This document shows positions 4,410-49,243 of a stretch of DNA of 51,719 nucleotides, piece after piece (position 1 is the stretch's first letter; every line of letters starts with the position of its first letter). The position numbers and the translations under genes are program-made. Source of the DNA: Pseudomonadota bacterium (GTDB taxonomy: Bacteria; Pseudomonadota; Alphaproteobacteria; RF32; CAG-239); the NCBI GenBank assembly GCA_030536665.1, contig JAUNPO010000001.1, positions 5,336 through 57,054 of the forward strand, in the 5' to 3' direction. The notes below the pieces were generated by a model that saw nothing but the letters and a program-made list of their open reading frames with translations, did no database searches and was not told the DNA's origin.

Positions 4410-4418
4410 TTATGCACA
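4410..4418 (+). promoter_or_regulatory. DnaA box TTATGCACA
   Basis: Matches the consensus TTATNCACA. Confidence 0.5.
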
Positions 4419-4432
4419 AAACCTGTTGATTC

Positions 4433-4441
4433 TGTGTATAA
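4433..4441 (-). promoter_or_regulatory. DnaA box TTATACACA (minus strand)
   Basis: The plus strand reads TGTGTATAA, and its reverse complement matches TTATNCACA. Confidence 0.5.
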
Positions 4442-4600
4442 CTCAGTGCTTTCTAATATTTATACAAAGTAATCCTCATAATGTAAAATTTATTCTACAA
4501 TTTTACCCACAATCGGCTCTCAGATTCGTTTTTCAACCAAGAAATTTATTTAAATTTAATGTAAATAATTAACTTTACAAACTATGACTCGATAAAAACA

Positions 4601-4615
4601 TTAAGATTCTGTTAA
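4601..4615. promoter_or_regulatory. CtrA-type box TTAA-N7-TTAA with GATTC in the spacer
   Basis: The sequence is ttaaGATTCtgttaa. The motif is short and the context is AT-rich, so a chance match is possible. Confidence 0.35.
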
Positions 4616-4644
4616 CTTTTAAAAAGTCAGGGCTTTTCGATTCG

Positions 4645-4659
4645 TTAACAATTTATTAA
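4645..4659. promoter_or_regulatory. CtrA-type box TTAA-N7-TTAA
   Basis: The sequence is ttaacaatttattaa. The same caveat applies as for 4601-4615. Confidence 0.35.
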
Positions 4660-4686
4660 CAATACTTTTAAAAGCGCCCCAAAAAC

Positions 4687-4695
4687 TTATCCACA
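4687..4695 (+). promoter_or_regulatory. DnaA box TTATCCACA (perfect)
   Basis: Exact match to the canonical 9-mer. Confidence 0.6.
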
Positions 4696-4759
4696 TAATG
4701 CACAGGCATATACAAACCACTACATAAATTTTAAAAATAATTAGTTAGGGCTTTCGGCT

Positions 4760-4768
4760 TGTGCATAA
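4760..4768 (-). promoter_or_regulatory. DnaA box TTATGCACA (minus strand)
   Basis: The plus strand reads TGTGCATAA. Confidence 0.5.
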
Positions 4769-4887
4769 CCTTTTTTCAAAACAAACATTTGACAGTTGAA
4801 CATTTAAATCATATAAACAAGTCAACGTTAAGCACATTCCTGCTTACTATTTCCCTCCTACTGCTACTACATACATAAGGTTACATA

Positions 4888-6141
4888 ATGCACTTACAAG
4901 AATTAAAGCAAAAATCTCCTAAAGAGTTGTTAACTCAGGCAGAAGAGCTTGGCATTGAAGACGCTTCTTCCATGCGTGTCCAGGATTTGATTTTTGCCAT
5001 CCTGAAAAAGGTTGCCTCTGACGACGAAATTATTTACGGTACCGGAACAATAGAAGTCCTCCCTGACGGATTTGGCTTCTTGCGGTCAATAGAATCAAAT
5101 TATTTAGCCAGCCCGGATGATATCTATGTTTCTCCGGCTCAGGTCAAAAAATTCGGCTTGCGGACAGGCGATACTGTCGAAGGCGAAATTCGCTCGCCCA
5201 AGGACAACGAACGTTATTTTGCGTTAACTAAAGTTAATAAAATCAATTATGAAGACCCTGAAAAATCAAAACTGCGCGTTAACTTTGACAATCTGACACC
5301 GCTATATCCGACAAAGAAATTAAATTTTGACATTATCTGCGGTGAAAAAGATTATACAACGCGCGTTATTGACCTGGTTGCGCCTCAGGGCAAAGGTCAG
5401 CGCGGTCTGATTGTGGCGCCGCCCCGCACCGGTAAAACAGTCATGCTGCAAAACATAGCGCACGCCATTGCCGAAAACCACCCGGAAGTTTACCTGATGG
5501 TTCTGCTTATTGACGAGCGCCCGGAAGAAGTGACGGATATGACCCGCTCTGTTAAAGGCGAAGTTATTTCATCCACGTTTGATGAACCGGCCAGCCGTCA
5601 TGTTCAGGTTGCCGAAATGGTTGTTGAAAAAGCCAAGCGCTTGGTTGAAACCAAAAAGGATGTTGTAATCCTGCTCGATTCCATTACCCGCCTTGGCCGC
5701 GCTTATAATGCGGTTATCCCCTCCTCCGGTAAGGTCTTAACCGGAGGTGTTGACGCCAATGCCCTGCAGCGTCCGAAACGTTTGCTTGGCGCTGCTCGCA
5801 ACGTTGAAGAAGGAGGTTCTTTGACAATCATTGCAACCGCGTTGGTTGATACCGGCTCCCGTATGGATGAAGTTATTTTTGAAGAATTCAAAGGAACCGG
5901 CAATTCTGAAATCATCCTTGACCGTAAATTGGTTGATAAACGCCTCTTCCCGACGATTGACATCACCCGGTCCGGAACGCGTAAGGAAGAGCTTCTTGTT
6001 GACCGCCAGACGCTTTCCAAGATGTGGGTTCTGCGCCGTGTATTAATGCAAATGGGTATGACTGACGGTATGGAATTTCTGCTTGATAAACTGAAAGTGT
6101 CAAAAGACAACAATGATTTCTTCAATAATATGAACAGTTAA
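4888..6141 (+). CDS. rho: Transcription termination factor Rho
   Basis: 417 aa with the Rho N-terminal and cold-shock-like domains, the P-loop APPRTGKT and the typical C-terminus. Confidence 0.95.
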
Positions 6142-6149
6142 ACAAAAAA

Positions 6150-6174
6150 AGAGAGGTTTTAACCTCTCTTTTCT
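6150..6174 (+). terminator. Intrinsic terminator after rho
   Basis: The stem agagagg/cctctct is followed by ttttc. It overlaps the 3' end of the convergent gene. Confidence 0.6.
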
Positions 6175-6809
6175 TCATAAAAATTTACAATCTTCTTTAC
6201 CCAGTCGTTTCTGTAAATATTTGAATCCATTGTCAGATATTCCAAAGTTTTGGAAATCATGTCAGGATATATTTCCCTAAACATGCCTAAAGATGAGAAA
6301 AAAGCAATAGCTCTTTCCTTGTCGACATCGTTTGTTGGATCCAGATGCAGTGCCAGAGAATAAACCATCGTTTGAAAATCAGATGATTTTTTTTCCATGG
6401 CAAAACCCCTGATGTGATTCTGCGATAAAATCATATAAGCTTCCGGCCAACACCATGAAAACATTGTTCCGTTCGCCGAGGTTAAATTCGGTTCTACGGC
6501 AAGCTTGACTAAGCGAAAAAAACAATCCTCGCAACCGATAATCATTTCCGGATACTCGCTTAAATTTTTAAAAAACGAACTCAGTTTTTCTCCGTTATAG
6601 TTTTTTATTTCTCGCGGAAATTCCTTCTGAAAAAGGTCTAAAGAATTTTTAATGATTATTTCAGCCGCATCCAGCATAGCGTGATAATCGGCAAATTCTT
6701 TTGCGCGTTCCGAAGGTTTGTTTGTTTTAATAATGCCGTTAACTTTCTGTTCTGCGATTCTCTTTGCAGTTAAACCACTTTTGTACAGTTCAAAAATTTG
6801 TGTATCCAT
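6159..6809 (-). CDS. Hypothetical protein
   Basis: 216-aa ORF with clean coding appearance. I recognise no family. It is opposite in strand to the flanking rho and mnmE. Confidence 0.5.
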   Translation of the reverse strand: MDTQIFELYKSGLTAKRIAEQKVNGIIKTNKPSERAKEFADYHAMLDAAEIIIKNSLDLFQKEFPREIKNYNGEKLSSFFKNLSEYPEMIIGCEDCFFRLVKLAVEPNLTSANGTMFSWCWPEAYMILSQNHIRGFAMEKKSSDFQTMVYSLALHLDPTNDVDKERAIAFFSSLGMFREIYPDMISKTLEYLTMDSNIYRNDWVKKIVNFYEEKRG

Positions 6810-7744: not shown

Positions 7745-9088
7745 ATGGACAATAAAACAATTTATGCCTTGTCAACCGTATTGGGAAAATCCGGCGTTGC
7801 CGTAATCCGTATTTCCGGAAAAGAGGCTTTGCAGGTTGTCCGGCTGATGACAAATCTTAATCCGGATAAAATAAAAGTGCGTTATGCCTATTTCACGGAT
7901 TTAAAAGATTTGAGCAAAAGCCATACTTTGGATAAATGCCTGTTGTTATATTTTAAGGCGCCTAATTCTTTTACCGGCGAGGATATTGTCGAATTGCAGA
8001 TACACGGTTCTCGCGCGGTGATTGCCAGTGTTCTGAACAATTTGAGCCGGATTCCCGAATTTCGCATGGCTGAGCCGGGAGAATTTTCCAAACGTGCCTT
8101 TTATAATCAAAAAATGGATTTGACGGAAGCGGAAGGTTTGGCTGATTTGATTGATGCTGAAACCGAAGCTCAGCAAAAATATGCTTTGCGCCAAATGGAA
8201 GGCAGCCTTAAAAATCTTTATGATGACTGGCGGACGCAGCTTGTAACAATTATGGCTCACCTTGAAGCTTATATCGATTTCCCTGATGAAGAAATTCCGG
8301 AATCCGTTGTCAATAACCTTAATAACACTGTATTTAAACTACGTGAAGCTATAAATAAACATTTGTCAGGCGATAATATCGGCGAACGTCTGCGTGAAGG
8401 GTTTCGCGTTGTCATTGTTGGCCGCCCTAATGCCGGGAAATCAAGTCTGTTGAATGCCTTTGCACAAAGGGATGTTGTTATTGTTTCCGATATAGCCGGC
8501 ACAACGCGCGACGCTGTTGATATTCATCTTGATTTGAACGGCTATCCGGTCATTATTACGGATACGGCCGGAATTCGCGAAACCGAAGAAGCTATAGAGA
8601 AACAGGGGGTTGAAATCGCATATCGCAAAATTAATGATGCTGATTTGCTTATTTGTTTGTTTGACGCTTCTCAAGACACTGTTCAGGTCTTTGATAATAT
8701 TGCGAAAACCTATGGTGATAAAATGGTTTATGTTGCCAATAAAGCCGATAATCTCACACCAGAACAATGTTCAAATATTGAAAAACAGAATATTCTTCTT
8801 ATTTCGGCCAAACACCATCAGGGAATAGATGTGCTTCTAGATAAAATTTCAAAGGTTATTGAAGACAAGTTTACGTCAAATTCTAATCTTTTGATAACGC
8901 GGGCACGCTATAGGGAGGCGCTTTCCCAAGCGTTGCAGTCACTTGACTTGTTTAATCTTGATAAGGAAATAGAGCTTTCTGCCGAAGATATCCGTCTGGC
9001 CGCTCGGGAAATAGGCAAAATTACCGGCCGTATTGAAATTGATGAAATCCTTGATAAAATTTTCGGCAGCTTCTGTATCGGTAAATAA
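7745..9088 (+). CDS. mnmE: tRNA modification GTPase MnmE
   Basis: The protein starts MDNKTIYALST…. G-domain motifs GRPNAGKSSLLN and DTAGIR are present, and the C-terminus is FCIGK. I prefer the ATG at 7745 over the ORF-track start at 7682. Confidence 0.9.
   Translation: MDNKTIYALSTVLGKSGVAVIRISGKEALQVVRLMTNLNPDKIKVRYAYFTDLKDLSKSHTLDKCLLLYFKAPNSFTGEDIVELQIHGSRAVIASVLNNLSRIPEFRMAEPGEFSKRAFYNQKMDLTEAEGLADLIDAETEAQQKYALRQMEGSLKNLYDDWRTQLVTIMAHLEAYIDFPDEEIPESVVNNLNNTVFKLREAINKHLSGDNIGERLREGFRVVIVGRPNAGKSSLLNAFAQRDVVIVSDIAGTTRDAVDIHLDLNGYPVIITDTAGIRETEEAIEKQGVEIAYRKINDADLLICLFDASQDTVQVFDNIAKTYGDKMVYVANKADNLTPEQCSNIEKQNILLISAKHHQGIDVLLDKISKVIEDKFTSNSNLLITRARYREALSQALQSLDLFNLDKEIELSAEDIRLAAREIGKITGRIEIDEILDKIFGSFCIGK
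8324..8338 (+). repeat. Polar motif copy 1: AACACTGTATTTAAA
   Basis: Inside mnmE. It reads ACT GTA TTT AAA (T V F K). Confidence 0.9.
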
Positions 9089-9101
9089 CACTGTATTTAA
9101 A
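9087..9101 (+). repeat. Polar motif copy 2: AACACTGTATTTAAA
   Basis: It starts inside the mnmE TAA stop codon (9086-9088). Confidence 0.9.
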
Positions 9102-9347
9102 GCCTGTTGTCGCAATTTTGTTGACTCGTCATCTGTTCTGCAGATTCAATGCGATTTTTATTTGAAAAAATTATTGAGAATGGATTGTTTCACGATTTAA
9201 TCTAATTTTAATAAAGAAGGAGCTCTGCTCTCTTTTTATTTTTGCCGATAAATAAAATGCAAAAAATAGCCTTTTCAAGCTATTACCCTCTTGTCAAAAA
9301 ATATAACCTGTTGTAAACCTTAGGCAATATAAAATTAAGGAATAAAA

Positions 9348-11201
9348 ATGAATAAAATACAGGAATTTGATGTTATTGTCGTTGGCGGCGGTCATGCCGG
9401 TTGTGAGGCTTGTGCCGCAGCCGCGCGCATGGGCGCCAAAACCGCACTGATTACTCATAAGATTTCTACCATAGGCGAAATGTCCTGCAATCCGGCTATT
9501 GGCGGTCTTGGCAAAGGCCACCTGGTTCGAGAAATTGACGCGCTGGACGGATTAATGGGGCGTGTTATTGATAAAGCCGGTATTCAGTTCCGCATGCTTA
9601 ATGCTTCCAAAGGACCTGCTGTCCGCGGTCCCAGAGCGCAGGCTGACCGTGATTTGTATAAAAAATTCATGCTTGAAGCTTTGCAGAAGCAGGAAAATTT
9701 GACAATTATCGAAGCTCCGGTCGAAGGGTTATATTTCACAGGTGATAAACTCAGCGGTGTTAAATTGGCCGATGAGAGTATCGTTAAATCAAAAGCCGTT
9801 ATTTTAACATCAGGCACTTTTTTGAATGGCGTTATGTTTACCGGCCATCAAGCAACGGTTGGCGGTCGTGTCGATGATGTTTCATGCGCCGGTATAACAC
9901 CGTATTTAAACGCTTGTGGTTTGAAAGTCGGTCGCTTAAAAACCGGAACCCCTGCCCGTCTAGATATAAAGACAATTAATTGGGATATGCTTCCCAAGCA
10001 GGATGGTGATGAAAATCCTGTTCCCTTTTCTTTTCTGACAAAAGAGATTTCTCAGCCGCAAATTCAATGTGCAATTACGCGCACCAACGAAAGAACTCAC
10101 CAAATTATTCGTGATAACTTTGAAAAATGCGCCCTCTTTTCTGGATTGATAAAAGGAATTGGCCCCCGCTATTGTCCCAGTATTGAAGATAAACTTGTCA
10201 AGTTTCCTGACCGTGACAGTCACCAGATTTTTTTGGAACCGGAAGGATACAAAACAAATGTTGTTTATCCCAACGGCATATCGACATCTCTGCCGGCGGA
10301 TGTGCAGGAGCAATTTATTCATACCATGGAAGGACTGGAAAATGTCAAAATTCTCCGTTATGCTTACGCGATTGAATATGACTTTGTCGATCCTCAGGAA
10401 TTAAATCGCAGATTGGAAGTCAAAAAAGTTCCGGGACTGTTTTTAGCCGGACAAATTAACGGAACAACCGGCTACGAAGAAGCTGCCGCTCAGGGAGTCA
10501 TCGCCGGTATTAATGCGGCCTTGAGTGCAAAAAATCCCGGAGAAGAGTTTACCGTTGACCGCAGCGAGGCCTATATCGGCGTTATGATTGACGACCTTAT
10601 AACAAAAGGCGTTGATGAACCATATCGTATGTTTACGTCCCGTTCTGAATATCGTTTGTTGCTGCGTGCCGATAATGCCGATTTGCGTTTGACGGAAAAG
10701 GGCTGGCAAGCTGGTTGTGTTAGTAAAGACAGATACACTGTATTTAAACAAAAACAGGAAAATATTAAGACTTGCCGGGAGTTATGCGAAACTTTGATAA
10801 CCAAAACGCCAGAACTTGAAAAATATGGTATTAAGGTTAAGCAGGATGGCACGCGCAGAACTGCATATAATATAATGTCTTATGATAATGTTTCACGTGA
10901 AACAATCAACGCCATTTGGCCGGAATTGATATCTATACCGGACGATACTTATGAACAGTTGGAAATTGAAGCCAGATATGCCGGATATATCAAACGTCAG
11001 GAAGCAGATATTGATGTTTTTAAAAAGGATGAAAAACTAAAAATACGCGAAGACATTGATTATTCACAGGTCGGTGGCTTATCGCGCGAAATGGTTCAAA
11101 AACTGACTAAAGTAAAACCGGCAACAATTGGCGAAGCCTCTCGTATTCCCGGTGTTACGCCGGCTGCGATTATGGCTGTTTTGGGGTATTTGAAAAAATA
11201 A
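9348..11201 (+). CDS. mnmG: tRNA uridine 5-carboxymethylaminomethyl modification enzyme MnmG
   Basis: FAD-binding motif [11 protein letters not shown]. The full-length 617 aa has a typical GidA sequence. Confidence 0.95.
9896..9910 (+). repeat. Polar motif copy 3: AACACCGTATTTAAA
   Basis: Inside mnmE's neighbour mnmG. It reads ACA CCG TAT TTA AAC (T P Y L N). Confidence 0.85.
10734..10748 (+). repeat. Polar motif copy 4: TACACTGTATTTAAA
   Basis: Inside mnmG. It reads ACT GTA TTT AAA (T V F K), a different frame from copy 3. Confidence 0.85.
10889..10904. promoter_or_regulatory. parS: parS centromere site TGTTTCACGTGAAACA (perfect palindrome) inside mnmG
   Basis: Exact 16-bp consensus ParB-binding palindrome. 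It encodes NVSRET. Confidence 0.85.
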
Positions 11202-11202
11202 T

Positions 11203-11217
11203 AACGCTGTATTTAAA
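11203..11217 (+). repeat. Polar motif copy 5: AACGCTGTATTTAAA
   Basis: It overlaps the second of the tandem TAA TAA stops of mnmG and ends 1 nt before the HD1 ATG. Confidence 0.85.
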
Positions 11218-11218
11218 C

Positions 11219-11845
11219 ATGAAAAAATATCCAAACATCAGAAATGCCGAAAAAATCTGGAAAGAAGGAATTGCGTACCGTCTGGCAAACTATCCCTTTC
11301 CTGAAAAGGATGAGTATATCTTTCACTCGCGTGGTGTCGGACGTTGCTGCCGCATTATTGCAGAACATACCCAAGACTTGAATCCCGAAAAAGCATATGT
11401 TCTCGGTTTGCTGCATGACTGCGGTAAACGGGTTAATGAGCGTTTATCAGGACGCTTCCACGTCCGGGAAGGCTATGATTTAATGGAAGCCATGGATTAT
11501 ACGGATGTTGCCAGAGTTTGCCTGACTCATAGTTTTTATTCTCCCGACTTTGATGAAAAGTTCTATCCGTCTTATCGTCCCGAATGGTTGGCATGGGCGA
11601 AAGATAAAATGCGCGGCATTACTTTTAACGATTATGATCGTCTTGTCCAGCTCTGCGATTTGTTCTTTGAAGGATTGGAAAAAGTTTGCTTGAAAAAACG
11701 TTTTGAAGGATTAATCAGACGCTATAATCTCCAATGGCCACTATTGCAAAGTTTGTATCAACATGCTCTGGATAATAAAAAGTTTTTTGATGAAAAATGC
11801 GGCTGCTGCATTTATGATTTGCTGGAAATAAAAAATGAAGATTAA
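11219..11845 (+). CDS. HD-domain phosphohydrolase (YqeK-like), paralog 1
   Basis: The H…HD metal motif is FHSRGV…LGLLHDCGK. It aligns along its whole length with the next gene. Confidence 0.7.
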   Translation: MKKYPNIRNAEKIWKEGIAYRLANYPFPEKDEYIFHSRGVGRCCRIIAEHTQDLNPEKAYVLGLLHDCGKRVNERLSGRFHVREGYDLMEAMDYTDVARVCLTHSFYSPDFDEKFYPSYRPEWLAWAKDKMRGITFNDYDRLVQLCDLFFEGLEKVCLKKRFEGLIRRYNLQWPLLQSLYQHALDNKKFFDEKCGCCIYDLLEIKNED

Positions 11846-11858
11846 CACTGTATTTAAA
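11844..11858 (+). repeat. Polar motif copy 6: AACACTGTATTTAAA
   Basis: It starts inside the HD1 TAA stop, 9 nt before the HD2 ATG. Confidence 0.9.
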
Positions 11859-11867
11859 GGATGAAAC

Positions 11868-12488
11868 ATGAGCTTTCCCTCCCGCCAAGAAGCTGAACGG
11901 CTTTTAGAAAAAGTAATTGAAATCAGAAATGCCACATTATATCCTTTTACGGATAAAATGGAGATAACTTTCCGCGCACATAGTCGGACTGTTGCTAAAA
12001 TAGCAGAAATACTGGCTAAAAAAACAGCGTATTTAAACATTGATAAAGCTTATGTCTGTGGGTTGTTGCATGATTGCGGTCGTATGCTGGATGAATGGAA
12101 TGAGCGCGTCTTTCATGGTCTGGTCGGATATCAGTATATGATGTCTTTGGGCTATGACGATGTCGCTAAAATTTGCCTGACACATAATTTTTATTCAGAA
12201 AATTTTCAAGATGAGGATTATCTGCAATTTGCCGAATTTATTCCTGAATGCCGCAGTATAATGAAAAACTTTTATTATGATGAATATGATAAGCTGATTG
12301 CCCTGTCCGATATGTTGAATGATATGGGAAAAACCTGCTCTTTGGAATATCGGCTGAACAGCATTTCTACACGTTATAAAACAGAGCCTGAGCAGTTAGA
12401 ACGTCTTAAAAAAGATTTGTATAATCTCAAATCTTTTTTTGATGAAAAATGCCATAATGACGTTTATAAAATTTTAGCGATTAAATGA
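11868..12488 (+). CDS. HD-domain phosphohydrolase (YqeK-like), paralog 2
   Basis: Motif RAHSRTVAKIAEILA…CGLLHDCGR. The C-terminus FFDEKC…Y.IL.IK is shared with paralog 1. Confidence 0.7.
   Translation: MSFPSRQEAERLLEKVIEIRNATLYPFTDKMEITFRAHSRTVAKIAEILAKKTAYLNIDKAYVCGLLHDCGRMLDEWNERVFHGLVGYQYMMSLGYDDVAKICLTHNFYSENFQDEDYLQFAEFIPECRSIMKNFYYDEYDKLIALSDMLNDMGKTCSLEYRLNSISTRYKTEPEQLERLKKDLYNLKSFFDEKCHNDVYKILAIK
12023..12037 (+). repeat. Polar motif copy 7: AACAGCGTATTTAAA
   Basis: Inside HD2. It reads T A Y L N. Confidence 0.8.
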
Positions 12489-12514
12489 TACAATCCTCCG
12501 CATAAGGAGGATTT

Positions 12515-13345
12515 ATGCAGCATTTTTCATATCATACTCATACCAATACTTTTGGTGTTTACGACGGTCATTATTCAATAGAAGAAATGATTAAAGCCGC
12601 CGAACAAGCCGGATACACCGAGCTTGGCATTTCTAATCATTTTATATATCACCCCAACATTTTTAAGGGATGTCAAGCCTCAGCAAACGATAAAATGTTT
12701 CATAGCGATTATGCCGAAGCGCTGGACATTTATAAAAGAACCATTGATGAAATCCGACGCATTGCAGCAAAAAGTAAGATTAAGGTCTATGCCGGTTTTG
12801 AAGTGGATTTTTTTCCGTCTTCTCAATGGCGGGATGTCTTTGAGAAAATGATTGCTGAAATCAAACCTGATTATCTAATAGGTTCAACCCATTACCTGCG
12901 AACCGCAGACGAAACTATGATGTGCAATATGTACTACCTATCGCAAACTGACATGACACATCAACAGGCGGAAGAATTACTGATAAATTACTGGCAAAAT
13001 ATAATTGAAGCCATAAAAAGCGGCTATTTTGCCTTTATAGCCCACCTTGATGTTTGTAAACTTTTTAATCTTGGCGTTGATCCGGTCTGGGATGAATGGA
13101 AGCGAAAGGTGATAAATGCTCTCAGTGAATATAATCATCCTTTCGAACTAAACACCAGCGGCTGGACGAAGGTTGGTGAGCAACATCCGCATCTCTGGAT
13201 GTTGGAAGAACTCGCCCAAAGACAAGTACCTGTTGTTATAAGTGATGACGCCCATAAGATTGAACATATTGCCCAACATTTTGAACAGGCAGAGAATCTG
13301 CTTAAAAGTATAAACTACACAAATCGCTGGAAACTGAATAAATAA
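12515..13345 (+). CDS. PHP-family phosphoesterase (HisJ/HisK histidinol-phosphatase-like), paralog 1
   Basis: N-terminal YHTHTNTFGVYDG and a later ISDDAHK. It is a tandem paralog of the next gene. Confidence 0.7.
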   Translation: MQHFSYHTHTNTFGVYDGHYSIEEMIKAAEQAGYTELGISNHFIYHPNIFKGCQASANDKMFHSDYAEALDIYKRTIDEIRRIAAKSKIKVYAGFEVDFFPSSQWRDVFEKMIAEIKPDYLIGSTHYLRTADETMMCNMYYLSQTDMTHQQAEELLINYWQNIIEAIKSGYFAFIAHLDVCKLFNLGVDPVWDEWKRKVINALSEYNHPFELNTSGWTKVGEQHPHLWMLEELAQRQVPVVISDDAHKIEHIAQHFEQAENLLKSINYTNRWKLNK

Positions 13346-14166
13346 TGCAAAATTATACCTATCATAGTCACACAAACAGTTTAGGAATTTTTGACGGTGC
13401 CGATTCTGCCGATAAAATGATAAGCCGCGCAGAAGAGCTTGGATTCTGTGAAATAGGTATCTCCAATCATCTTATTTGTCATCCGGGGCTTTGTGAAATT
13501 GATAAAATGCAGGCAATGTATTTTCGCGACTATCAACAGGCTGAGAATATTTATAAAAAGGCCGTTGATGATATACGCGAGGCTGCCGCAAAGCATAAAA
13601 TAAAAGTTTATGTCGGTTTTGAAGTTGATTATTTTAACGATAAAAATTGGCTGAATTTTTTTGAACAAATTAGAAAATCTCTGGATGTCGATTACTATAT
13701 CGGTGCCAGCCATTTTATCTATAACAATGATTTCTCTAAAATTCTTAAAATATCTTATCTTAAAAAACGTCCCGACCTTTTGGATGACGAAATCTTGTCT
13801 TCAGGTTTAACAAACCATTGGCGTAATCTTATTGCGGCAATAAAAAGCGGCTGGTTTACCTTTATGGCGCATATTGACCAGATAACGGCAAAAGGTTTCT
13901 GTACCGATACAACGTGGGATGAATTGAAGTGGCAGATTATCGAAGCCTTTGCATCATCCAAAACCGGCTGTGAACTGAGTACAAAAGGCCTGCGCCAAAC
14001 AAAAGACTTTTTTCCGGCAGCCTGGATAGTTAAAGAATTAAACAAACGTAATGTGCCTTTGATAATAAGTGATGATGCGCATTCCGCGTCACAGTTGGGA
14101 GAGAACTTTGATAAAGCAGAAACTTTCTTGACTGAAATTAATTATAAAAATCGTATAAAATTTTAA
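13345..14166 (+). CDS. PHP-family phosphoesterase (HisJ/HisK-like), paralog 2
   Basis: N-terminal YHSHTNSLGIFDG and a later ISDDAHS. Its start overlaps the stop of paralog 1 (TAATG). Confidence 0.7.
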   Translation: MQNYTYHSHTNSLGIFDGADSADKMISRAEELGFCEIGISNHLICHPGLCEIDKMQAMYFRDYQQAENIYKKAVDDIREAAAKHKIKVYVGFEVDYFNDKNWLNFFEQIRKSLDVDYYIGASHFIYNNDFSKILKISYLKKRPDLLDDEILSSGLTNHWRNLIAAIKSGWFTFMAHIDQITAKGFCTDTTWDELKWQIIEAFASSKTGCELSTKGLRQTKDFFPAAWIVKELNKRNVPLIISDDAHSASQLGENFDKAETFLTEINYKNRIKF

Positions 14167-14293
14167 TGTTTTGAGTCTAAAAACATTGTTTAACCTGTTG
14201 ATTTAAAATATTTTATTTGTTCTTGCTTTTTATGTGTTTATAACTCGATTAAATGTGTTTTAAATTCCTTTGAAAATTTATATAAATAATCTT

Positions 14294-14917
14294 ATGGAAA
14301 ATTTAATCGAAAAATATAATGTTTCACGTGAAACATTTTCAAAATTGAAAACTTATGAAGCCTCTCTGAAAGAGTGGCAGGAAAAGTTTAACCTGGTTAG
14401 CAAGGCTTCTCTGGATGATGCTTGGAATCGTCATTTTGTTGATTCCTTGCAGTTGCTTCCGCTCATTCCGGAAAAAGCTAAAGTGATGTATGATTTTGGC
14501 TCTGGAGCTGGCTTTCCGGGCTTAGTACTGGCAACGGTTTTAAAGGAAAAAACACCGTATTTAAAAATAAAACTGATTGAGAGTATTAAAAAGAAAACAC
14601 TGTATTTAAACGCGGTTGCTGAAATGCTTAAGCTGGACAATGTTGAAATCCTCAATGACCGTATTGAAAACATCAAAAAAGTTCCGGCTGATGTTATAAC
14701 ATCGCGTGCCATGTGCAACTTAAATGATTTGCTGCGTTATGCTTCCGGTTTTTGCAGCAAAAACACAAAATGCATTTTCCCCAAAGGAAAAAAATATGCG
14801 GAAGAAATTTCGGAAGCGCAAAAAAATTGGAACTTCAATTACAAACTGGTTCAAAGCGTATCCAGCGACGAAGGAATGATAATCGTGATAACAGACTTGT
14901 CAGGAAAAAGGAGATAA
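14294..14917 (+). CDS. rsmG: 16S rRNA (guanine527-N7)-methyltransferase RsmG
   Basis: N-terminal MENLIEKYNVSRET… and the SAM motif DFGSGAGFPGL. The ATG at 14294 gives a typical length; the ORF-track start at 14270 is a TTG. Confidence 0.9.
   Translation: MENLIEKYNVSRETFSKLKTYEASLKEWQEKFNLVSKASLDDAWNRHFVDSLQLLPLIPEKAKVMYDFGSGAGFPGLVLATVLKEKTPYLKIKLIESIKKKTLYLNAVAEMLKLDNVEILNDRIENIKKVPADVITSRAMCNLNDLLRYASGFCSKNTKCIFPKGKKYAEEISEAQKNWNFNYKLVQSVSSDEGMIIVITDLSGKRR
14320..14335. promoter_or_regulatory. parS: parS centromere site TGTTTCACGTGAAACA (perfect palindrome) inside rsmG
   Basis: Exact 16-bp consensus, again encoding NVSRET. Confidence 0.85.
14551..14565 (+). repeat. Polar motif copy 8: AACACCGTATTTAAA
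   Basis: Inside rsmG. It reads T P Y L K. Confidence 0.85.
14596..14610 (+). repeat. Polar motif copy 9: AACACTGTATTTAAA
   Basis: Inside rsmG, 45 nt after copy 8. It reads T L Y L N. Confidence 0.9.
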
Positions 14918-14920
14918 TTG

Positions 14921-15700
14921 ATGCCGAGAATAATAGCCATTGCCAATCGTAAAGGCGGGGTCGGAAAAACAACGACAACGGTTAACGTTGCCACAGCCAT
15001 GGCGGCCACGGGAAAAAAAGTTTTGGTTATTGATTTGGATCCGCAGGGAAATGCCACAACGTCAATGGGAATAAATAAAAAAGGGCGTATGGCTTCTTCC
15101 TATGAAGTTTTGCTTGGCGAAAGGACTTTGTCCGAAGCGGTTGTCTGGACCGAAATTCCTAATTTTTCTATCGTGCCGTCATCTGCCGATTTGGCCGGAG
15201 CTGAGGTTGAGCTGGTTGATATGCCAAACCGTGAATTTGCCTTGAAGAAGGCTATTGTCCAAAGCGCCGTCAATTACGACTATGTTCTGATTGATTGTCC
15301 GCCATCTTTGAGTCTGGTAACAATCAATGCTTTGGTGGCTGCTAATGCCGTCATTGTACCCCTGCAATGCGAATTTTTGGCTCTTGAGGGCATCACCGAT
15401 TTGATTCGCAACATTAATATCATTAAAAAGAAATTTAATCCGGGGTTGGAACTTCAGGGCGTTGTCCTGACAATGTATGACAAACGCAACAATCTCAGCC
15501 AAATGGTTGAAGACGACGTCAGAAACTTCTTCGGAAAAAAAGTTTATCAAACCGTTATTCCGAGAAATGTCCGAATTTCCGAAGCGCCTTCGCACGGCAA
15601 ACCTGTCTTGCTTTATGATTTTAAATGCTCCGGTTCTCAGGCCTACATCAGCTTGACCGGTGAAGTCTTGAAAAGAGAAAAGGAATTGATTGCATGTTAG
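14921..15700 (+). CDS. parA: Chromosome partitioning ATPase ParA
   Basis: Deviant Walker A motif NRKGGVGKTTT. The ATG at 14921 lies 7 nt after an AAGGAG Shine-Dalgarno sequence. Confidence 0.93.
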   Translation: MPRIIAIANRKGGVGKTTTTVNVATAMAATGKKVLVIDLDPQGNATTSMGINKKGRMASSYEVLLGERTLSEAVVWTEIPNFSIVPSSADLAGAEVELVDMPNREFALKKAIVQSAVNYDYVLIDCPPSLSLVTINALVAANAVIVPLQCEFLALEGITDLIRNINIIKKKFNPGLELQGVVLTMYDKRNNLSQMVEDDVRNFFGKKVYQTVIPRNVRISEAPSHGKPVLLYDFKCSGSQAYISLTGEVLKREKELIAC

Positions 15701-16713
15701 AAGATAAAATAAATGAATTGGATAAGCTCGCCGAAGGCGAAAATCACGCCAACGCCAAAAGAAAAAGCTTGGGCCGCGGTCTGGGAGCGCTTCTTGGTGA
15801 CGACGACTTGGATTTAAATGACTTCCCCGGCGAAGAAAAAAAGTCTTCTGACAAACCGGCTGATTTGGTAAATATCAATTTGATAAAGGCCAGCCCGTTT
15901 CAGCCGCGTACGGAGTTTGACGAAGAAGCGCTGCGTGCTTTGGCCGATTCGGTCAAGGAAAAAGGCGTCTTGCAGCCTTTGCTTGTCCGTAAAGTCGGCA
16001 ATGATTATGAATTGATTGCCGGAGAAAGGCGTCTGCGCGCTTCCAAATTGGCCGGTCTGTCTGAAGTTCCGGTTATTGTCCGGGAAATGACCGATCAGGA
16101 AGTTCTGGAAGTCGCTCTGGTTGAAAATCTGTTGCGTGAAAATCTGTCTGCAATAGAAGAAGCGGAAGGCTTGCAGCGTTTAATCGACGAATTTTCTCAC
16201 ACGCAGGAAGCCTTGTCCAAAATTATCGGCAAATCTCGCAGCCATATTGCTAATACGCTGCGTCTGCTGACCCTGCCGGAAAGCGTTCAAAATCTGGTTA
16301 AGGAAGGCAAATTGTCTGCCGGTCAGGCGCGCAACCTCGTCGGTTTGGAAAATGCGGAAGATTTGGCGCAGCTGATTATCAAAAAAGATTTGAATGTCCG
16401 CCAGGTTGAAGAACTGGTGAATAAGCTTAAGAACGCCAAACCGCAGAAAAAAGAACCGGAGGAAATCAGTCAGGATTTGGTTGATATCGAAAAATCCCTG
16501 AACAAATCCCTGGGGCTGCGAATTAAAATCAGCCAGGGAAAACAGGGAAGCGGAAAAGTTGTTTTGCAATATTCTTCTGTTGCCGAGCTGGATATGATAA
16601 TAGACTTGCTAGAACAAAAACGCCGCAATGCCCGTCCCATGATGGTGCCTGCGCCGTCAGCAGGTGGCGGAGAGAAGCCGCAGGAAAAATTTACGATGAA
16701 AGTAATTGATTAA
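15694..16713 (+). CDS. parB: Chromosome partitioning protein ParB
   Basis: ParB box LIAGERRLRASKLAG and an HTH region. The gene overlaps the parA stop. Confidence 0.93.
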   Translation: MLEDKINELDKLAEGENHANAKRKSLGRGLGALLGDDDLDLNDFPGEEKKSSDKPADLVNINLIKASPFQPRTEFDEEALRALADSVKEKGVLQPLLVRKVGNDYELIAGERRLRASKLAGLSEVPVIVREMTDQEVLEVALVENLLRENLSAIEEAEGLQRLIDEFSHTQEALSKIIGKSRSHIANTLRLLTLPESVQNLVKEGKLSAGQARNLVGLENAEDLAQLIIKKDLNVRQVEELVNKLKNAKPQKKEPEEISQDLVDIEKSLNKSLGLRIKISQGKQGSGKVVLQYSSVAELDMIIDLLEQKRRNARPMMVPAPSAGGGEKPQEKFTMKVID

Positions 16714-30065: not shown

Positions 30066-30158
30066 AAAAGGCGGAGGAACACTGACCTTAATCGGTTCGT
30101 TACGGCTGCTTTCTTCCGAACCTGACCGGGTTGGCGAAAGATTAACCCAATGCCCTCC
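30066..30158 (-). ncRNA. ffs: Signal recognition particle RNA (4.5S, small type)
   Basis: The minus strand reads GGAGGGCAUUGGGUUAAUCUUUCGCCAACCCGGUCAGGUUCGGAAGAAAGCAGCCGUAACGAACCGAUUAAGGUCAGUGUUCCUCC. It contains the conserved GGUCAGGU.CGGAAG.AAGCAGCC domain IV core, and the 5' and 3' ends pair. It sits in the classical position upstream of dnaX. The ends are approximate. Confidence 0.8.
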
Positions 30159-30164
30159 ATTGAC

Positions 30165-36293: not shown

Positions 36294-37118
36294 ATGTTCA
36301 ACATGAATATTAATCTTAAATTTCTACTCTTAGAAACAACACTGTCTTTAATTCCAAATTTCTTATATGCACAATGTTCACCGGCTCAAAATTGTGCTGA
36401 ACTCGGCTATATAGAAACTTCCAATAAAGGCGGCTGTTTGAAATGTCCGTTTGGTAATGGATGGTATTGCCCAGATTCCAAAGAAGAAAAAGCTATACTC
36501 GGCGAGTGTAGCGGCTATGCTAAAAACTGTAAAATCGGCGATATCCTTAACAGCGATGGTACTTGTACAACGGATAAAGCAAGTGGTAAGACACCGATAG
36601 GGGTGGTCATTGCCGTCAAAGACGATTGTGGTTGGGCTATAACGGCAAATCCGGTTGCGCAGGGTACACCTTGGTCAACTAAGCCTAATTATACAGTGTT
36701 GCCTATAAATTCCGGAAATATAGCAAATGTGTACGATAATTGTGAATATACAAAAATCATCACCGCTGAGGGTAACAATAACGAATTTCCTGCAGCATGG
36801 GCTGCAATAAACTATGCGCCGACAGCCGCGCCGGAAACCAAAGGAAAATGGTGTCTTCCTGCTCCGGGAATAATGAATGATTTATTTCCGTACCTCAATG
36901 AGGTTAACAATGCAATAGCAAAACTAAGCGGAACGGTTCTCACGGCTCAAATAGGCCCGGAATCATATGTAGACAGAAATGAACACCTCTGGTTATCTGT
37001 TGAGGGCGATAATCTGAACGCTTATTATTTTTGCGCAGCCTGTCCAACGTTTATTAGCAATACAGCCAAGAAGAACTATCTTACGACATTTACGGTGCGC
37101 CCGGTACTGGCCTTTTAA
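36294..37118 (+). CDS. Secreted Cys-rich protein with a DUF1566-like domain, paralog A
   Basis: Signal peptide M(FNM)NINLKFLLLETTLSLIPNFLYA|QC. The body contains GKWCLPAPGIMNDL and the C-terminus is …VRPVLAF. An alternative start is at 36303. Confidence 0.65.
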   Translation: MFNMNINLKFLLLETTLSLIPNFLYAQCSPAQNCAELGYIETSNKGGCLKCPFGNGWYCPDSKEEKAILGECSGYAKNCKIGDILNSDGTCTTDKASGKTPIGVVIAVKDDCGWAITANPVAQGTPWSTKPNYTVLPINSGNIANVYDNCEYTKIITAEGNNNEFPAAWAAINYAPTAAPETKGKWCLPAPGIMNDLFPYLNEVNNAIAKLSGTVLTAQIGPESYVDRNEHLWLSVEGDNLNAYYFCAACPTFISNTAKKNYLTTFTVRPVLAF

Positions 37119-46849: not shown

Positions 46850-47269
46850 ATGGAAAACCAATATTATACATTGATTGAAAAACAGGATTTTTACGAAATT
46901 ATTGAGAACAAATACGGCGAACTGGCAATATTCATTGATGCCCGCGACGGTGCGCCGAAAGATCCGGTTCTTGAATTTGACGGCAAAAAAACGGCCCTGC
47001 TGAAAAGGGACGAACGCCTGTCCGTGCTGTTGGAAGATATCCATGAAGAAACCAAAGGGCCTTTGGCGGAAGCCGAATTTGTCCTGATTGTCGAGCTTGA
47101 AGGAAAAATGGTTAACCGGACATACGGCGTTCCGGTTGAAAATGTTGAAGAAGTTGTTCTTAACGGCCGCCGCACCCGTGCTGATGAAATCGTCAAGGCC
47201 AAAAGCCGTGAAGAACTTATCAAAAGTTTCGGCGCTGTTCGTACTTGGACAAGCGGTATCAAAAAATAG
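46850..47269 (+). CDS. Hypothetical protein
   Basis: 139-aa ORF upstream of the PTS regulatory pair. I recognise no family. Confidence 0.4.
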   Translation: MENQYYTLIEKQDFYEIIENKYGELAIFIDARDGAPKDPVLEFDGKKTALLKRDERLSVLLEDIHEETKGPLAEAEFVLIVELEGKMVNRTYGVPVENVEEVVLNGRRTRADEIVKAKSREELIKSFGAVRTWTSGIKK

Positions 47270-47294
47270 TGAATAATAAAGAAAGAAGAAAAAA

Positions 47295-47693
47295 ATGATT
47301 GGTTTGGTTTTGGTAACTCATGGCCGGTTGGCCGAAGAATTTATTTCGGCCATGCAGCATGTTGTCGGCCCCCAGGATCAGGTGAAGGCCGTCTGTATCG
47401 GGCCGGAAGATGATATGGAAATGCGCCGCAGTGAAATTTTGAGCAAAGTCGGCGAAGTTGACAAAGGCAGCGGAGCAATCGTGCTGACGGACATGTTTGG
47501 CGGCACGCCATCCAATCTGGCAATTTCAATCATGGACAAGGCCAAAGTCGAAATCATTGCCGGCATTAATTTGCCGATGCTGATTAAACTGGCGTCCCTC
47601 CGGAAAGACAAATCCCTGAAAGAAGCGGTTGAAGGGGCTCAGGATGCCGGAAAAAAATATATTAATGTCGCGTCAAAACTTCTGGGAATGTAA
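47295..47693 (+). CDS. PTS EIIA component, mannose family
   Basis: MIGLVLVTHGRLAEEF… includes the phosphorylatable His. It contains TDMFGGTP. Confidence 0.85.
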   Translation: MIGLVLVTHGRLAEEFISAMQHVVGPQDQVKAVCIGPEDDMEMRRSEILSKVGEVDKGSGAIVLTDMFGGTPSNLAISIMDKAKVEIIAGINLPMLIKLASLRKDKSLKEAVEGAQDAGKKYINVASKLLGM

Positions 47694-47695
47694 AA

Positions 47696-47974
47696 ATGAC
47701 TGAACAGACACTGAGCGCTGAATTGGAAATTCAGAATAAAAAAGGTCTGCATGCCCGGGCGGCGGCCGCTTTTGTAAAGACAATCGAAAATCTGGACGCC
47801 GATGTCACGGTTGAGCGTATCGGACAGGTTGTTAACGGGACGTCAATCATGGGGTTGATGATGCTGGCGGCAGCTAAGGGAACCACAATCAAAATCAATG
47901 CTTCCGGTAAAGAAGCGGAAGCAGCCATGGCAGCTTTGACAAATCTGATTAACAGTAAATTTGGTGAAGAATAG
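47696..47974 (+). CDS. ptsH: HPr-family phosphocarrier protein (NPr-like)
   Basis: The active-site region is NKKGLHARAAA. Confidence 0.85.
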   Translation: MTEQTLSAELEIQNKKGLHARAAAAFVKTIENLDADVTVERIGQVVNGTSIMGLMMLAAAKGTTIKINASGKEAEAAMAALTNLINSKFGEE

Positions 47975-47986
47975 CTCCTTGTTATC

Positions 47987-48913
47987 ATGCAGACAACTAA
48001 AGCGCCGCGCAATAAAACCATAGAATTGACCCCAAAAGAAGTAAGTCATTATGCTCGCAAGGCCATAAGACTTAATTTCAAGGCCTCGTTGGACTATGTC
48101 TTAGATAAGACAATACATCAGGATGTTTTCAAAACATTGGATTACCTGCCTGATGAAAGCGTTGATTTAGTTATTGTTGACCCGCCGTATAACCTGACAA
48201 AAATCTTTGGAAACAGTGTATTTAAAGAGCGCGATTTCAGCGAATATAAAAAATGGCTGGATAAATGGCTGAAAAAGCTTCCCCGTATCATGAAGGAAAA
48301 TGCCAGTATCTATATTTGCGCGGATTGGAAAACCTCTATCTCCATTCCTGAGATTGCCGGCAAATATTTTATCTTGCAAAACCGGATATCCTGGGAAAGG
48401 GAGAAAGGCCGGGGAGCAAAAGACAACTGGAAAAACTGTCTGGAAGATATCTGGTTTTTTACAAAATCAAAAGAATATACGTTTAACCTTGACGCGGTTA
48501 AAGTTTTGCGTCCGGTTCGGGCGCCATACCGGGATGACAGCGGCGCGCCGAAAGACTGGCAGGATAGCGGAGATAAGCGTCATCGCCTGACTTATCCGTC
48601 AAATATCTGGACCGATATCTCCATTCCGTTTTGGTCAATGCCGGAAAACACCTCCCACCCGACTCAAAAACCGGAAAAACTTCTGGCCAAGCTTATTTTG
48701 GCTTCCAGCAATAAGAATGATGTCGTGTTGGATCCGTTTCTGGGGTCGGGAACAACGTCTGTTGTTGCCAAAAAACTGCAGCGTCATTATATCGGTATTG
48801 AACGTGAAAAAGAATATGTCGCTCTGGCTGAACGCCGCTTGGAACTGGCTGATGAAAATACTGAAATTCAGGGGTTTGAAAACGGTGTATTTAAATCCAG
48901 AAATTATGAATAA
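47987..48913 (+). CDS. Beta-class DNA methyltransferase (DPPY; N6-adenine or N4-cytosine), orphan
   Basis: Motif IV (VIVDPPYN) precedes motif I (LDPFLGSGTT), and IGIEREKEY is present. No restriction gene is adjacent. Confidence 0.8.
   Translation: MQTTKAPRNKTIELTPKEVSHYARKAIRLNFKASLDYVLDKTIHQDVFKTLDYLPDESVDLVIVDPPYNLTKIFGNSVFKERDFSEYKKWLDKWLKKLPRIMKENASIYICADWKTSISIPEIAGKYFILQNRISWEREKGRGAKDNWKNCLEDIWFFTKSKEYTFNLDAVKVLRPVRAPYRDDSGAPKDWQDSGDKRHRLTYPSNIWTDISIPFWSMPENTSHPTQKPEKLLAKLILASSNKNDVVLDPFLGSGTTSVVAKKLQRHYIGIEREKEYVALAERRLELADENTEIQGFENGVFKSRNYE
48212..48226 (+). repeat. Polar motif copy 10: AACAGTGTATTTAAA
   Basis: Inside the methyltransferase gene. It reads S V F K. Confidence 0.8.
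48881..48895 (+). repeat. Polar motif copy 11: AACGGTGTATTTAAA
   Basis: Inside the methyltransferase gene. It reads G V F K. Confidence 0.8.
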
Positions 48914-48927
48914 ACACTGTATTTAAA
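48913..48927 (+). repeat. Polar motif copy 12: AACACTGTATTTAAA
   Basis: It starts at the last base of the methyltransferase TAA stop. Confidence 0.9.
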
Positions 48928-49056: not shown

Positions 49057-49170
49057 ATGAGTAACAATGAAAAAAATACGTCTTCAAAAACAAATTCAAA
49101 TACATCTAAAAACAGCAGTTCTTCCACTTCTAACACCGGCAAAAAAGGCTGTGGCTGCGGCGGTAAATAA
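49057..49170 (+). CDS. Small ORF (37 aa): MSNNEKNTSSKTNSNTSKNSSSSTSNTGKKGCGCGGK
   Basis: It is not in the ORF track because it is too short. An AAGGAG sequence lies 7 nt upstream of the ATG, and a strong terminator lies 40 nt downstream. Confidence 0.45.
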   Translation: MSNNEKNTSSKTNSNTSKNSSSSTSNTGKKGCGCGGK

Positions 49171-49209
49171 AAACTGAATTTTAGCAGTTATTTCATAGTG
49201 TCACTTGTT

Positions 49210-49243
49210 ATCCCGATGATTCTCCCTCATCGGGATTTTTTTC
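49210..49243 (+). terminator. Intrinsic terminator after the small ORF
   Basis: The hairpin atcccgatga-ttctccc-tcatcgggat is followed by tttttt. Confidence 0.8.

Follow-up and report, generated by a model that had tools for sequence, protein, structure and literature searches.

A short same-direction DNA word arrayed around the origin and centromere of an uncultured gut alphaproteobacterium, with a satellite cluster at a DNA methyltransferase gene

The stretch of DNA analysed here, 51,719 nucleotides of contig JAUNPO010000001.1 (GenBank assembly GCA_030536665.1, positions 5,336 to 57,054; hereafter the window), spans the origin and centromere region in the chromosome of an uncultured gut alphaproteobacterium, and it carries a short recurrent word whose core is GTATTTAAA. 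The core occurs twelve times on the + strand and never on the − strand, against an expectation of about 0.5, and is confined to two clusters. The first (8324–14610) runs through mnmE, mnmG and rsmG, and the second lies in and just after a DNA methyltransferase gene (47987–48913, + strand) that encodes 308 aa with a DPPY motif in the permuted order of the beta class and is the last enzyme gene of its operon. Copy 10 (AACAGTGTATTTAAA, 48212–48226, +) is in frame 0 of this gene at codons 76–80 and encodes N-S-V-F-K in a variable loop directly past the DPPY motif. Copy 11 (AACGGTGTATTTAAA, 48881–48895, +), again in frame 0, takes up codons 299–303 and encodes the N-G-V-F-K of a conserved C-terminal ENG[V/I]FK peptide, and copy 12 (AACACTGTATTTAAA, 48913–48927, +) has the final A of the TAA stop codon as its first base, the remainder being non-coding. 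An initial annotation of the window had reported these three copies, and we reproduced their exact positions and + strand. The 33.6 kb that it gave as the gap from the first cluster (14610 to 48212) holds as well, and this interval contains no copy of the word.

The nine copies of the first cluster are likewise all on the + strand. Five of them are universal sites at positions orthologous between species, one in mnmE, two in mnmG and two in rsmG. The mnmE site (site 'a', 8324–8338) is in frame 0, encodes N-T-V-F-K and is kept at the orthologous position in all ten aligned species. In mnmG, site 'c' (9896–9910) is read in frame 2 as T-P-Y-L-N with a mean identity within the word of 0.97, and site 'd' (TACACTGTATTTAAA, 10734–10748), read as Y-T-V-F-K, has a third-position identity of 1.00 in ten of ten species, is the most palindromic of the copies and is followed 155 bp downstream by a parS site. 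The two rsmG sites, 'h1' and 'h2' (14551–14610), are 45 bp apart and in frame 2, with mean identities of 0.93 and 0.94 compared to 0.72 gene-wide. Between these lie four further copies: one across the mnmE stop codon (9087–9101; found in relatives L215–L217 and absent from L219–L221), one that occupies most of the 17-bp gap between the mnmG stop and the start of the first HD gene (11203–11217), one across the stop codon of that HD gene (11844–11858), and one within the second HD gene (AACAGCGTATTTAAA, 12023–12037; decayed in L216).

In the window the degenerate 15-mer AACNSTGTATTTAAA is matched eight times, compared to 0.00 in 100 shuffles, and TGTATTTAAA nine times, compared to 0.33 in shuffles. 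Allowing up to two mismatches to the 15-mer gives 13 matches on the + strand, namely the twelve counted copies and an isolated one at 36338, which has two mismatches and does not contain the GTATTTAAA core. No further word was found in 5.9 kb added to the left of the window. Three further assemblies of this species (L001, L002 and L320) carry the methyltransferase triple as well.

Aligning 112 instances from the window and related loci yields the motif a-W-A-A-C-R-N-Y-GTATTTAAA, with no conservation on the downstream side. At its centre is a dyad, AC-R-N-Y-GT, in which a purine at −3 (111 of 112 instances) is mirrored by a pyrimidine at −1 (109 of 112); further mirrored pairs are C(−4)/G(0), A(−5)/T(+1) and A(−7,−8)/T(+3,+4). 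The unit is thus an imperfect 13-bp dyad, AAAAC-RNY-GTATT, to which a one-sided TAAA extension is added, and in several tandem clusters the repeat period is also 13 bp, that of the dyad unit. Such symmetry is typical of a DNA site for a dimer. We found no extended conserved flanks around the copies, and a longer repeat containing the word was ruled out on the grounds that the flanks are unconserved.

Comparison with relatives was based on rsmG neighbourhoods, in fetched loci with 65–93% RsmG identity and in further metagenome loci with about 44–60%, and on codon alignments of ten species (nine for rsmG). Third-codon-position identity within the words is mostly 0.8–1.0, compared to 0.42–0.57 gene-wide. 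The sites use two reading frames as well as non-coding spacers, which argues that the constraint acts on nucleotides and not on protein; the third frame contains a stop codon, and so copies in that frame sit exactly at gene ends. Taken together, the alignments indicate that the word is a real element under nucleotide-level purifying selection. Judged from the same alignments, this constraint has reshaped the encoded proteins, from RW..F to RYTVFK in mnmG and from K..FL to KTLYL in rsmG. The word is retained at the same codons where the RsmG proteins are only about 44–65% identical, and only in the most distant species (L326) has one of the two rsmG sites been lost. Around this core are lineage-specific copies, some at the stops of mnmE, mnmG and the first HD gene, others within HD genes or at the 3′ end of parB. 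The main arrays have 5 to 10 sites, spread over 6–8 kb of mnmE, mnmG, rsmG and sometimes parB.

The main array lies next to features of a replication origin and of a centromere. The gene order on the left side of the window is Tim44, MltA, Smr, RNase T, CoaE, a 470-bp intergenic region, Rho, a 216-aa protein and HAD, continuing with mnmE, mnmG, HD, HD, PHP, PHP, rsmG, parA and parB. The intergenic region between coaE and rho (4418–4888) is oriC-like. It holds the sole perfect DnaA box of the window (TTATCCACA at 4687) and several boxes with one mismatch. The window's three CtrA-type TTAA-N7-TTAAC boxes (4601, 4644 and 4645) are all here, along with four GANTC sites in 120 bp, one of them within a CtrA box. 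This layout suggests, at the level of sequence, that CtrA and GANTC methylation control initiation as in Caulobacter. GC skew changes from negative to positive a few kb to the right of this region. One perfect parS (TGTTTCACGTGAAACA) is located in mnmG (10889–10904) and is conserved in most relatives examined, and another is located in rsmG (14320–14335), with parA and parB next (14918–16713). The first word cluster therefore brackets both parS sites, adjoins parAB and begins about 3.4 kb from the oriC-like region. The gene content of the mnmE-mnmG-rsmG interval (window 11219–14166) is highly variable when the window is compared to L215–L221. The window has tandem HD-HD and PHP-PHP (HisJ-like) pairs, and the alternatives in relatives are one HD gene; EPSP synthase with PHP; NUDIX with EPSP synthase, a 421-aa HD protein and flavodoxin; or an open reading frame (ORF) of 110–149 aa between mnmE and mnmG.

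Scanning metagenome contigs for two nearby words (counts of loci and samples are those among the matches listed) recovered origin arrays from additional species, the methyltransferase cluster of the window itself (L320) and clusters of other types. In polA of a related gut species, three in-frame words lie in the linker of the protein as ENTVFK, ENSVFK and ENAVFK (L249, 4370–4444; also L231), which has the appearance of a DNA-level element expanding within a protein linker. Cluster A is a triple with a 13-bp period directly past the stop of a gene of 137–148 aa beside rpsA (L241/L278 type; at least eight samples among the matches listed). Cluster B is a triple directly after oprB with one more copy within oprB (L330), and a related pair is found in the L276 type (at least five samples, again among the matches listed). 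A further triple directly follows trkA (L257, L322 and L272). Several of these can be placed by synteny. In L249, the penicillin-binding protein (PBP) gene and polA have counterparts at 73–78% identity in L150 and L144, about 9–10 kb downstream of the methyltransferase. Clusters A and B flank a block of SDR, gmk and cysK; in L148 this block is found 4–9 kb upstream of the methyltransferase. In L278, homologues of Tim44, MltA and Smr, and SecB by position, lie 7 kb from cluster A. In total, five of the six metagenome cluster types adjoin genes that in clade genomes are within about 10 kb of the methyltransferase or of the genes on the origin side. Within 391,903 bp flanking the methyltransferase in 26 related species there is no full word outside the methyltransferase gene, which is itself word-bearing in four. 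Many matches of the two-word scan (for example L266–L268, L271 and L280) are unrelated tandem repeats and were set aside. In L254 (100–450) we also noted a tandem array, possibly unrelated to the present element, with a 41-bp period (…AATAACACTGTATTTAAACTGAATCTGA.CGGATT…) in which at least three units contain the word.

All copies within each array point the same way, including many that were gained independently. The window clusters have the word on the strand that is both coding and G-rich (word-strand GC skew between about +0.08 and +0.11). At clusters A and B, by contrast, the flanking genes run antisense to it and its strand is the C-rich one, the GC skew being −0.13 to −0.21, where GC skew is taken as an inferred proxy for replication direction. 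The word thus need not be sense-transcribed or be on the leading strand.

We examined the second cluster of the window in relation to its host gene. The methyltransferase belongs to PF01555, the N6/N4 DNA methyltransferases (Pfam, E = 1.8e-50), its nearest solved structure is M.MboIIA (3.8e-34), and no NCBIfam equivalog cut-off was reached. Upstream in the operon (46850–47974, + strand) are a 139-aa protein without a family match and, by profile matches, EIIA-Man and HPr, and this order of four genes is conserved in 25 of 25 clade loci examined. Nearly all homologues of the enzyme at 60–86% identity belong to metagenome-assembled genomes catalogued as uncultured Alphaproteobacteria or proteobacteria, and animal or human gut is the source of many of these; the identical protein occurs in two metagenome-derived assemblies (ENA and Logan). 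Words in or after the gene are limited to the species of the window and the four nearest to it, L135–L138, whose enzymes are 81–86% identical to that of the window; L135–L137 have two copies each and L138 has four. The gene carries no word in the 22 loci at 75% identity or less. The peptides under both in-gene copies were there before the word. The copy 10 loop reads GKSVFK or GKNVFK in non-word codons in L135–L137 (for example AAA AGT GTT TTT AAG), and GGA AAC AGT GTA TTT AAA in the window and L138. The copy 11 peptide is ENGIFK or ENGVFK in distant homologues, written in other codons (for example AAC GGC ATT TTC AAA), and the word form is retained in L135–L138. The copy at the stop codon is present in all five species despite unrelated downstream sequence. 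In L135–L137 the word's own TAA is the methyltransferase stop, and L138 has two copies at the stop. Chance or a peptide-driven codon pattern was considered and rejected, since most homologues write xSVFK and ENG[V/I]FK with non-word codons, other copies are non-coding or in another frame, and third positions are mostly conserved at 0.8–1.0. A full origin array (L219) and a wordless methyltransferase gene (L142) share one 277-kb contig. These comparisons indicate that the origin array predates the methyltransferase copies and does not depend on them. On our reading the gene would be a convenient host that already nearly encoded the word twice, and not the word's partner; a small array could be built there at little cost and would since have been under selection.

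We tentatively favour the explanation that the word is the putative binding site of a sequence-specific DNA-binding protein and marks a centromere/origin domain, with the methyltransferase cluster being a young satellite array; we regard this as approaching, though falling short of, a probable account. It is the dyad symmetry, the nucleotide-level selection, the rarity of the word and its concentration around parS and the origin that lead us to a binding site, and we infer both the protein that would read the word and the effect that its binding would have. The suggestion of the initial annotation that the word could be a protein-recognition site is to this extent reasonable, the word being selected, strand-consistent and dyadic, whereas its suggestion of a target or regulatory site of the methyltransferase gained no comparative support. 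A reader protein would probably bind the word as a dimer. The clade keeps same-direction arrays of sites around its centromere, interleaved with the two parS sites, and single lineages add satellite arrays of 2–4 sites within some tens of kb. The satellite at the methyltransferase would have arisen in the common ancestor of the five closest species, where a change of codons would have brought two near-word peptides to the word and the stop would have gained one or two copies outside the coding sequence. The likeliest role would be to mark or organise the origin-proximal domain, as parS/ParB, ram/RacA and clusters of DnaA boxes do. We file the element as a clade-specific array of cis-acting sites with a putative reader. 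To our knowledge, few elements besides parS and DnaA boxes define origin-proximal domains in bacteria, and we know of none for this clade. The array gives a testable handle on how the origin region is organised or regulated in abundant uncultured gut Alphaproteobacteria, and the word is a clean example of DNA-level constraint shaping protein sequence.

Several points weigh against this explanation. The restriction to origin-proximal regions is based on synteny of fragments; the trkA cluster type is unmapped, and clusters A, B and trkA are tied to the clade by 45–75% protein identity to clade loci. The invariance of the GTATTTAAA core in the logo is partly imposed, the instances having been gathered by that core. 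Moreover, a symmetric dimer by itself leaves unexplained why at least ten independently gained sites of the main array have the same direction, and nearly all intragenic copies (at least 13) are sense, the sole antisense one being inside oprB in L330. Uniform direction fits a directional process or an RNA-level function better. A more ambitious form of the explanation, which we consider possible but rather doubtful, would make the words a second layer of centromere/origin-domain identity, in which a dedicated protein or an RNA-guided complex reads same-direction 17-bp words and their direction informs segregation, cohesion or replication control. The words that bracket parS would then seed satellites within tens of kb, as in the neighbourhoods of the methyltransferase, polA, oprB and rpsA.

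The main rival to a DNA-binding site is a role at the RNA level, which we judge unlikely. Here the sense words in the mRNAs of mnmE-mnmG-rsmG(-parAB), the methyltransferase and polA would be targets of an RNA-binding protein or of anti-word small RNAs, the latter being tandem anti-word RNAs made from mRNA 3′ ends at clusters A, B and trkA. All copies in the window and all intragenic copies in the origin operon, the methyltransferase gene and polA are indeed on the sense strand, and the antisense clusters all begin directly past the stop of a gene on the opposite strand. At cluster A the gene-sense transcript would consist of the stop, three anti-words, a 10-bp hairpin and a U-run (z = −2.9), which is the usual layout of a small RNA derived from a 3′UTR, and wobble pairing could accommodate the A/G variation at −3 and the U/C variation at −1. 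However, that purine/pyrimidine pattern is equally explained by a DNA dyad, and the 'regulator' and 'target' copies share the same spectrum of it. Nothing convincing by way of a terminator or stable fold was seen at clusters B and trkA (z from −0.1 to −1.5), and there is no anti-word locus in the 58 kb known for the window's species. The word has no Rfam match; a search of the window and six word-bearing loci with Rfam covariance models at gathering score returned only SRP RNA and one tRNA. Furthermore, small-RNA control in bacteria offers no known precedent for five to ten conserved targets deep within the coding sequence of a single operon. A signal on one DNA strand for a moving machine, such as an RfaH/ops-like factor, a replication-fork barrier or a translocase-orienting sequence, would account for the perfect same-direction sites of each array, including the many independent lineage-specific gains, and in the window the strand that carries the word is both coding and G-rich. 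We nonetheless think it distinctly improbable, given that clusters A and B lie on the C-rich strand and antisense to their genes and so leave no uniform polarity to replication or transcription, that the distribution is local, unlike that of genome-wide Chi or KOPS, and that the dyad argues for recognition of double-stranded DNA.

A tie to the methyltransferase, in which the word would contain the recognition site of the neighbouring enzyme or a site regulating it, had been raised by the initial annotation and now appears very improbable to us. In its favour are the concentration of the copies, put at three to four, in or after the gene in five species, the adenines and the palindrome TTTAAA within the word, and a DPPY motif of the kind typical of N6-adenine enzymes. 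Against it, the enzyme is found throughout the clade (25 loci) and its gene bears the word only in the five closest species; the origin array predates these copies and persists where the gene has none; no word is found near the homologues (55–60% identity) of cyanobacteria, Ignavibacteria and other phyla; TTTAAA is not enriched in the window (57 observed, 71 expected); and the in-gene copies exploit peptides already in place. Remnants of a mobile element or an integrated replicon (iterons, transposase-binding sites or cassette junctions in the variable mnmE-rsmG interval) would fit the changing gene content of that interval (HD, PHP, EPSP synthase, NUDIX, small ORFs), the several words exactly at gene junctions and the iteron-like 13-bp tandem repeats of some clusters. 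Yet the five universal sites are inside core genes and off the junctions, no set in the opposite orientation, transposase, integrase or rep gene lies near any cluster, and no plasmid or phage matches (best E = 0.09), so that such an origin is also highly unlikely. We give least credence, and hardly any, to a DNA uptake sequence similar to the DUS of Neisseriaceae or the USS of Pasteurellaceae, which are enriched in genome-maintenance genes. The word is short, occurs within coding sequence in several frames and at gene ends, is often in DNA- or RNA-related genes and keeps stable orthologous positions across species, all as an uptake sequence might. Its density, however, is too low and its distribution too clustered for an uptake sequence, which would be spread over the genome fairly evenly at about 1 per 1–3 kb; there is none in 33.6 kb of the window and none outside the methyltransferase gene in about 390 kb. 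Uptake sequences also occur in both orientations, often as inverted pairs at terminators, and the copies in each cluster of the word are all direct repeats and never such pairs.

Known systems of chromosomal sites resemble the array in part. Like the word, parS/ParB uses short sites within the coding sequence of origin-proximal housekeeping genes (mnmG, rsmG), several copies per few kb and shared across species. However, parS is an unrelated 16-bp palindrome (TGTTNCACGTGAAACA), whereas the word is asymmetric and same-direction, and a canonical parS and ParB are present besides the array, so that the word would be an additional system. As to the word being parS itself, the only window matches to TGTTNCACGTGAAACA with fewer than three mismatches are at 10889 and 14320, and neither coincides with a word. 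In Bacillus subtilis, RacA/ram, RefZ/RBM and clusters of DnaA boxes provide tens of sites by which the origin domain is marked or regulated, some of them inside genes. These share with the word array a concentration of specific sites at the origin, but ram and RBM are palindromes and the DnaA box is a universal 9-mer, and the word is neither; we know of no homologue of RacA/RefZ-type binders in Alphaproteobacteria. The DnaA box TTATNCACA and the word complement TTAAATACA differ at two specific positions. The word was also rejected as a DnaA or CtrA box on location, the perfect DnaA box and all CtrA-type boxes being at 4.6–4.7 kb, away from the words, and as a CtrA box on structure, with its single TTAA and no partner 11 bp off.

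The matS sites (consensus GTGAC-RNY-GTCAC) mark the terminus, and MatP is known only from some Gammaproteobacteria. A 13-bp dyad with an AC-R-N-Y-GT centre in one chromosomal domain is common to matS and the word, but the arms differ (GTGAC/GTCAC compared to AAAAC/GTATT), as does the domain (terminus compared to origin), and matS has no one-sided TAAA. Plasmid iterons, directly repeated asymmetric units of 13–17 bp that may stand head to tail, recall the 13-bp period of clusters A, B and trkA; unlike them, the word has no adjacent rep gene, and the sites of its main array are hundreds of bp apart in core genes. Nothing similar was found in a search of 72,556 plasmids, and the best plasmid and phage matches had E values of 0.09 or higher. 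DUS/USS, Chi and KOPS are over-represented oligomers that occur genome-wide at about one per 1–5 kb, with KOPS and Chi oriented with replication. The word resembles them in its use of coding sequence in particular frames and its local strand consistency, but differs in being limited to a few clusters whose orientation is not uniform, and a genome-wide polarity of the Chi or KOPS type is excluded by the opposite skew at clusters A and B. A single-word scan of a viral collection gave only scattered single chance matches among the matches listed, and when viral contigs were scanned for two words, the pairs that turned up were either due to chance or unrelated. Searching the literature for the word and its complement returned primers and unrelated sequences only, and a search for origin-proximal asymmetric sites in Alphaproteobacteria returned nothing matching. 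Compared by eye, the consensus sequences of sigma-70 promoters (normal and extended −10), LexA, IHF, Fis, ArcA, NrdR, dif/Xer, Tn7 ends and Type I restriction sites gave no fit. A programmed frameshift (U UUA AAC) and codon sensing by MnmE/MnmG were set aside as well, with copies in spacers, in two frames and in unrelated genes.

It had further been proposed that every gene hosting the word acts on nucleic acids or nucleotides, which proves uninformative. The nine copies of the first cluster are in a single co-directional, operon-like run, in which the two wordless PHP proteins are histidinol phosphatases of the HisJ type. At least twelve genes of the window that act on nucleic acids have no word, among them those for RecR, DnaX, YbaB, RsmI, RlmN, CCA/polyA polymerase, RadA, Rho, ParA/ParB, ExoIII and SNase, and in relatives clusters also follow genes for the oprB porin and for trkA potassium uptake. 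We considered the 216-aa protein encoded between rho and the HAD gene (6159–6809, − strand), which is fast-evolving and has an HTH-like N-terminus (IFELYKSGLTAKRIAEQ), as a binder of the word. Its occurrence is limited to the species of the window plus three close relatives (32–98% identity); distant loci that retain the array lack it, and it was rejected.

At the methyltransferase operon, the 139-aa protein that heads it is 70–94% identical across the clade (window 46850–48913; L135–L159), and the coupling of PTS-type regulators to an orphan methyltransferase is unusual. A search for a terminator or structure at the 3′ end of the methyltransferase gene found nothing convincing. The gene is followed by a 37-aa Ser/Asn-rich ORF ending in GCGCGGK (49058–49171), next to which is a strong intrinsic terminator (49210–49236). 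In L145 a comparable small ORF that ends in Gly/Cys seems to lie past the methyltransferase on the opposite strand, and in most relatives lolA directly follows the methyltransferase. Elsewhere in the window, a small bacterial SRP RNA is encoded at 30067–30161 on the − strand (Rfam RF00169, 65.8 bits). GATC is depleted about six-fold in the window (28 observed compared to 169 expected, about 10 standard deviations), ATGCAT (6 compared to 22) and GANTC (120 compared to 176) are also under-represented, and GAAGA/TCTTC is over-represented (177 compared to 100); these skewed counts may reflect past or present restriction pressure.

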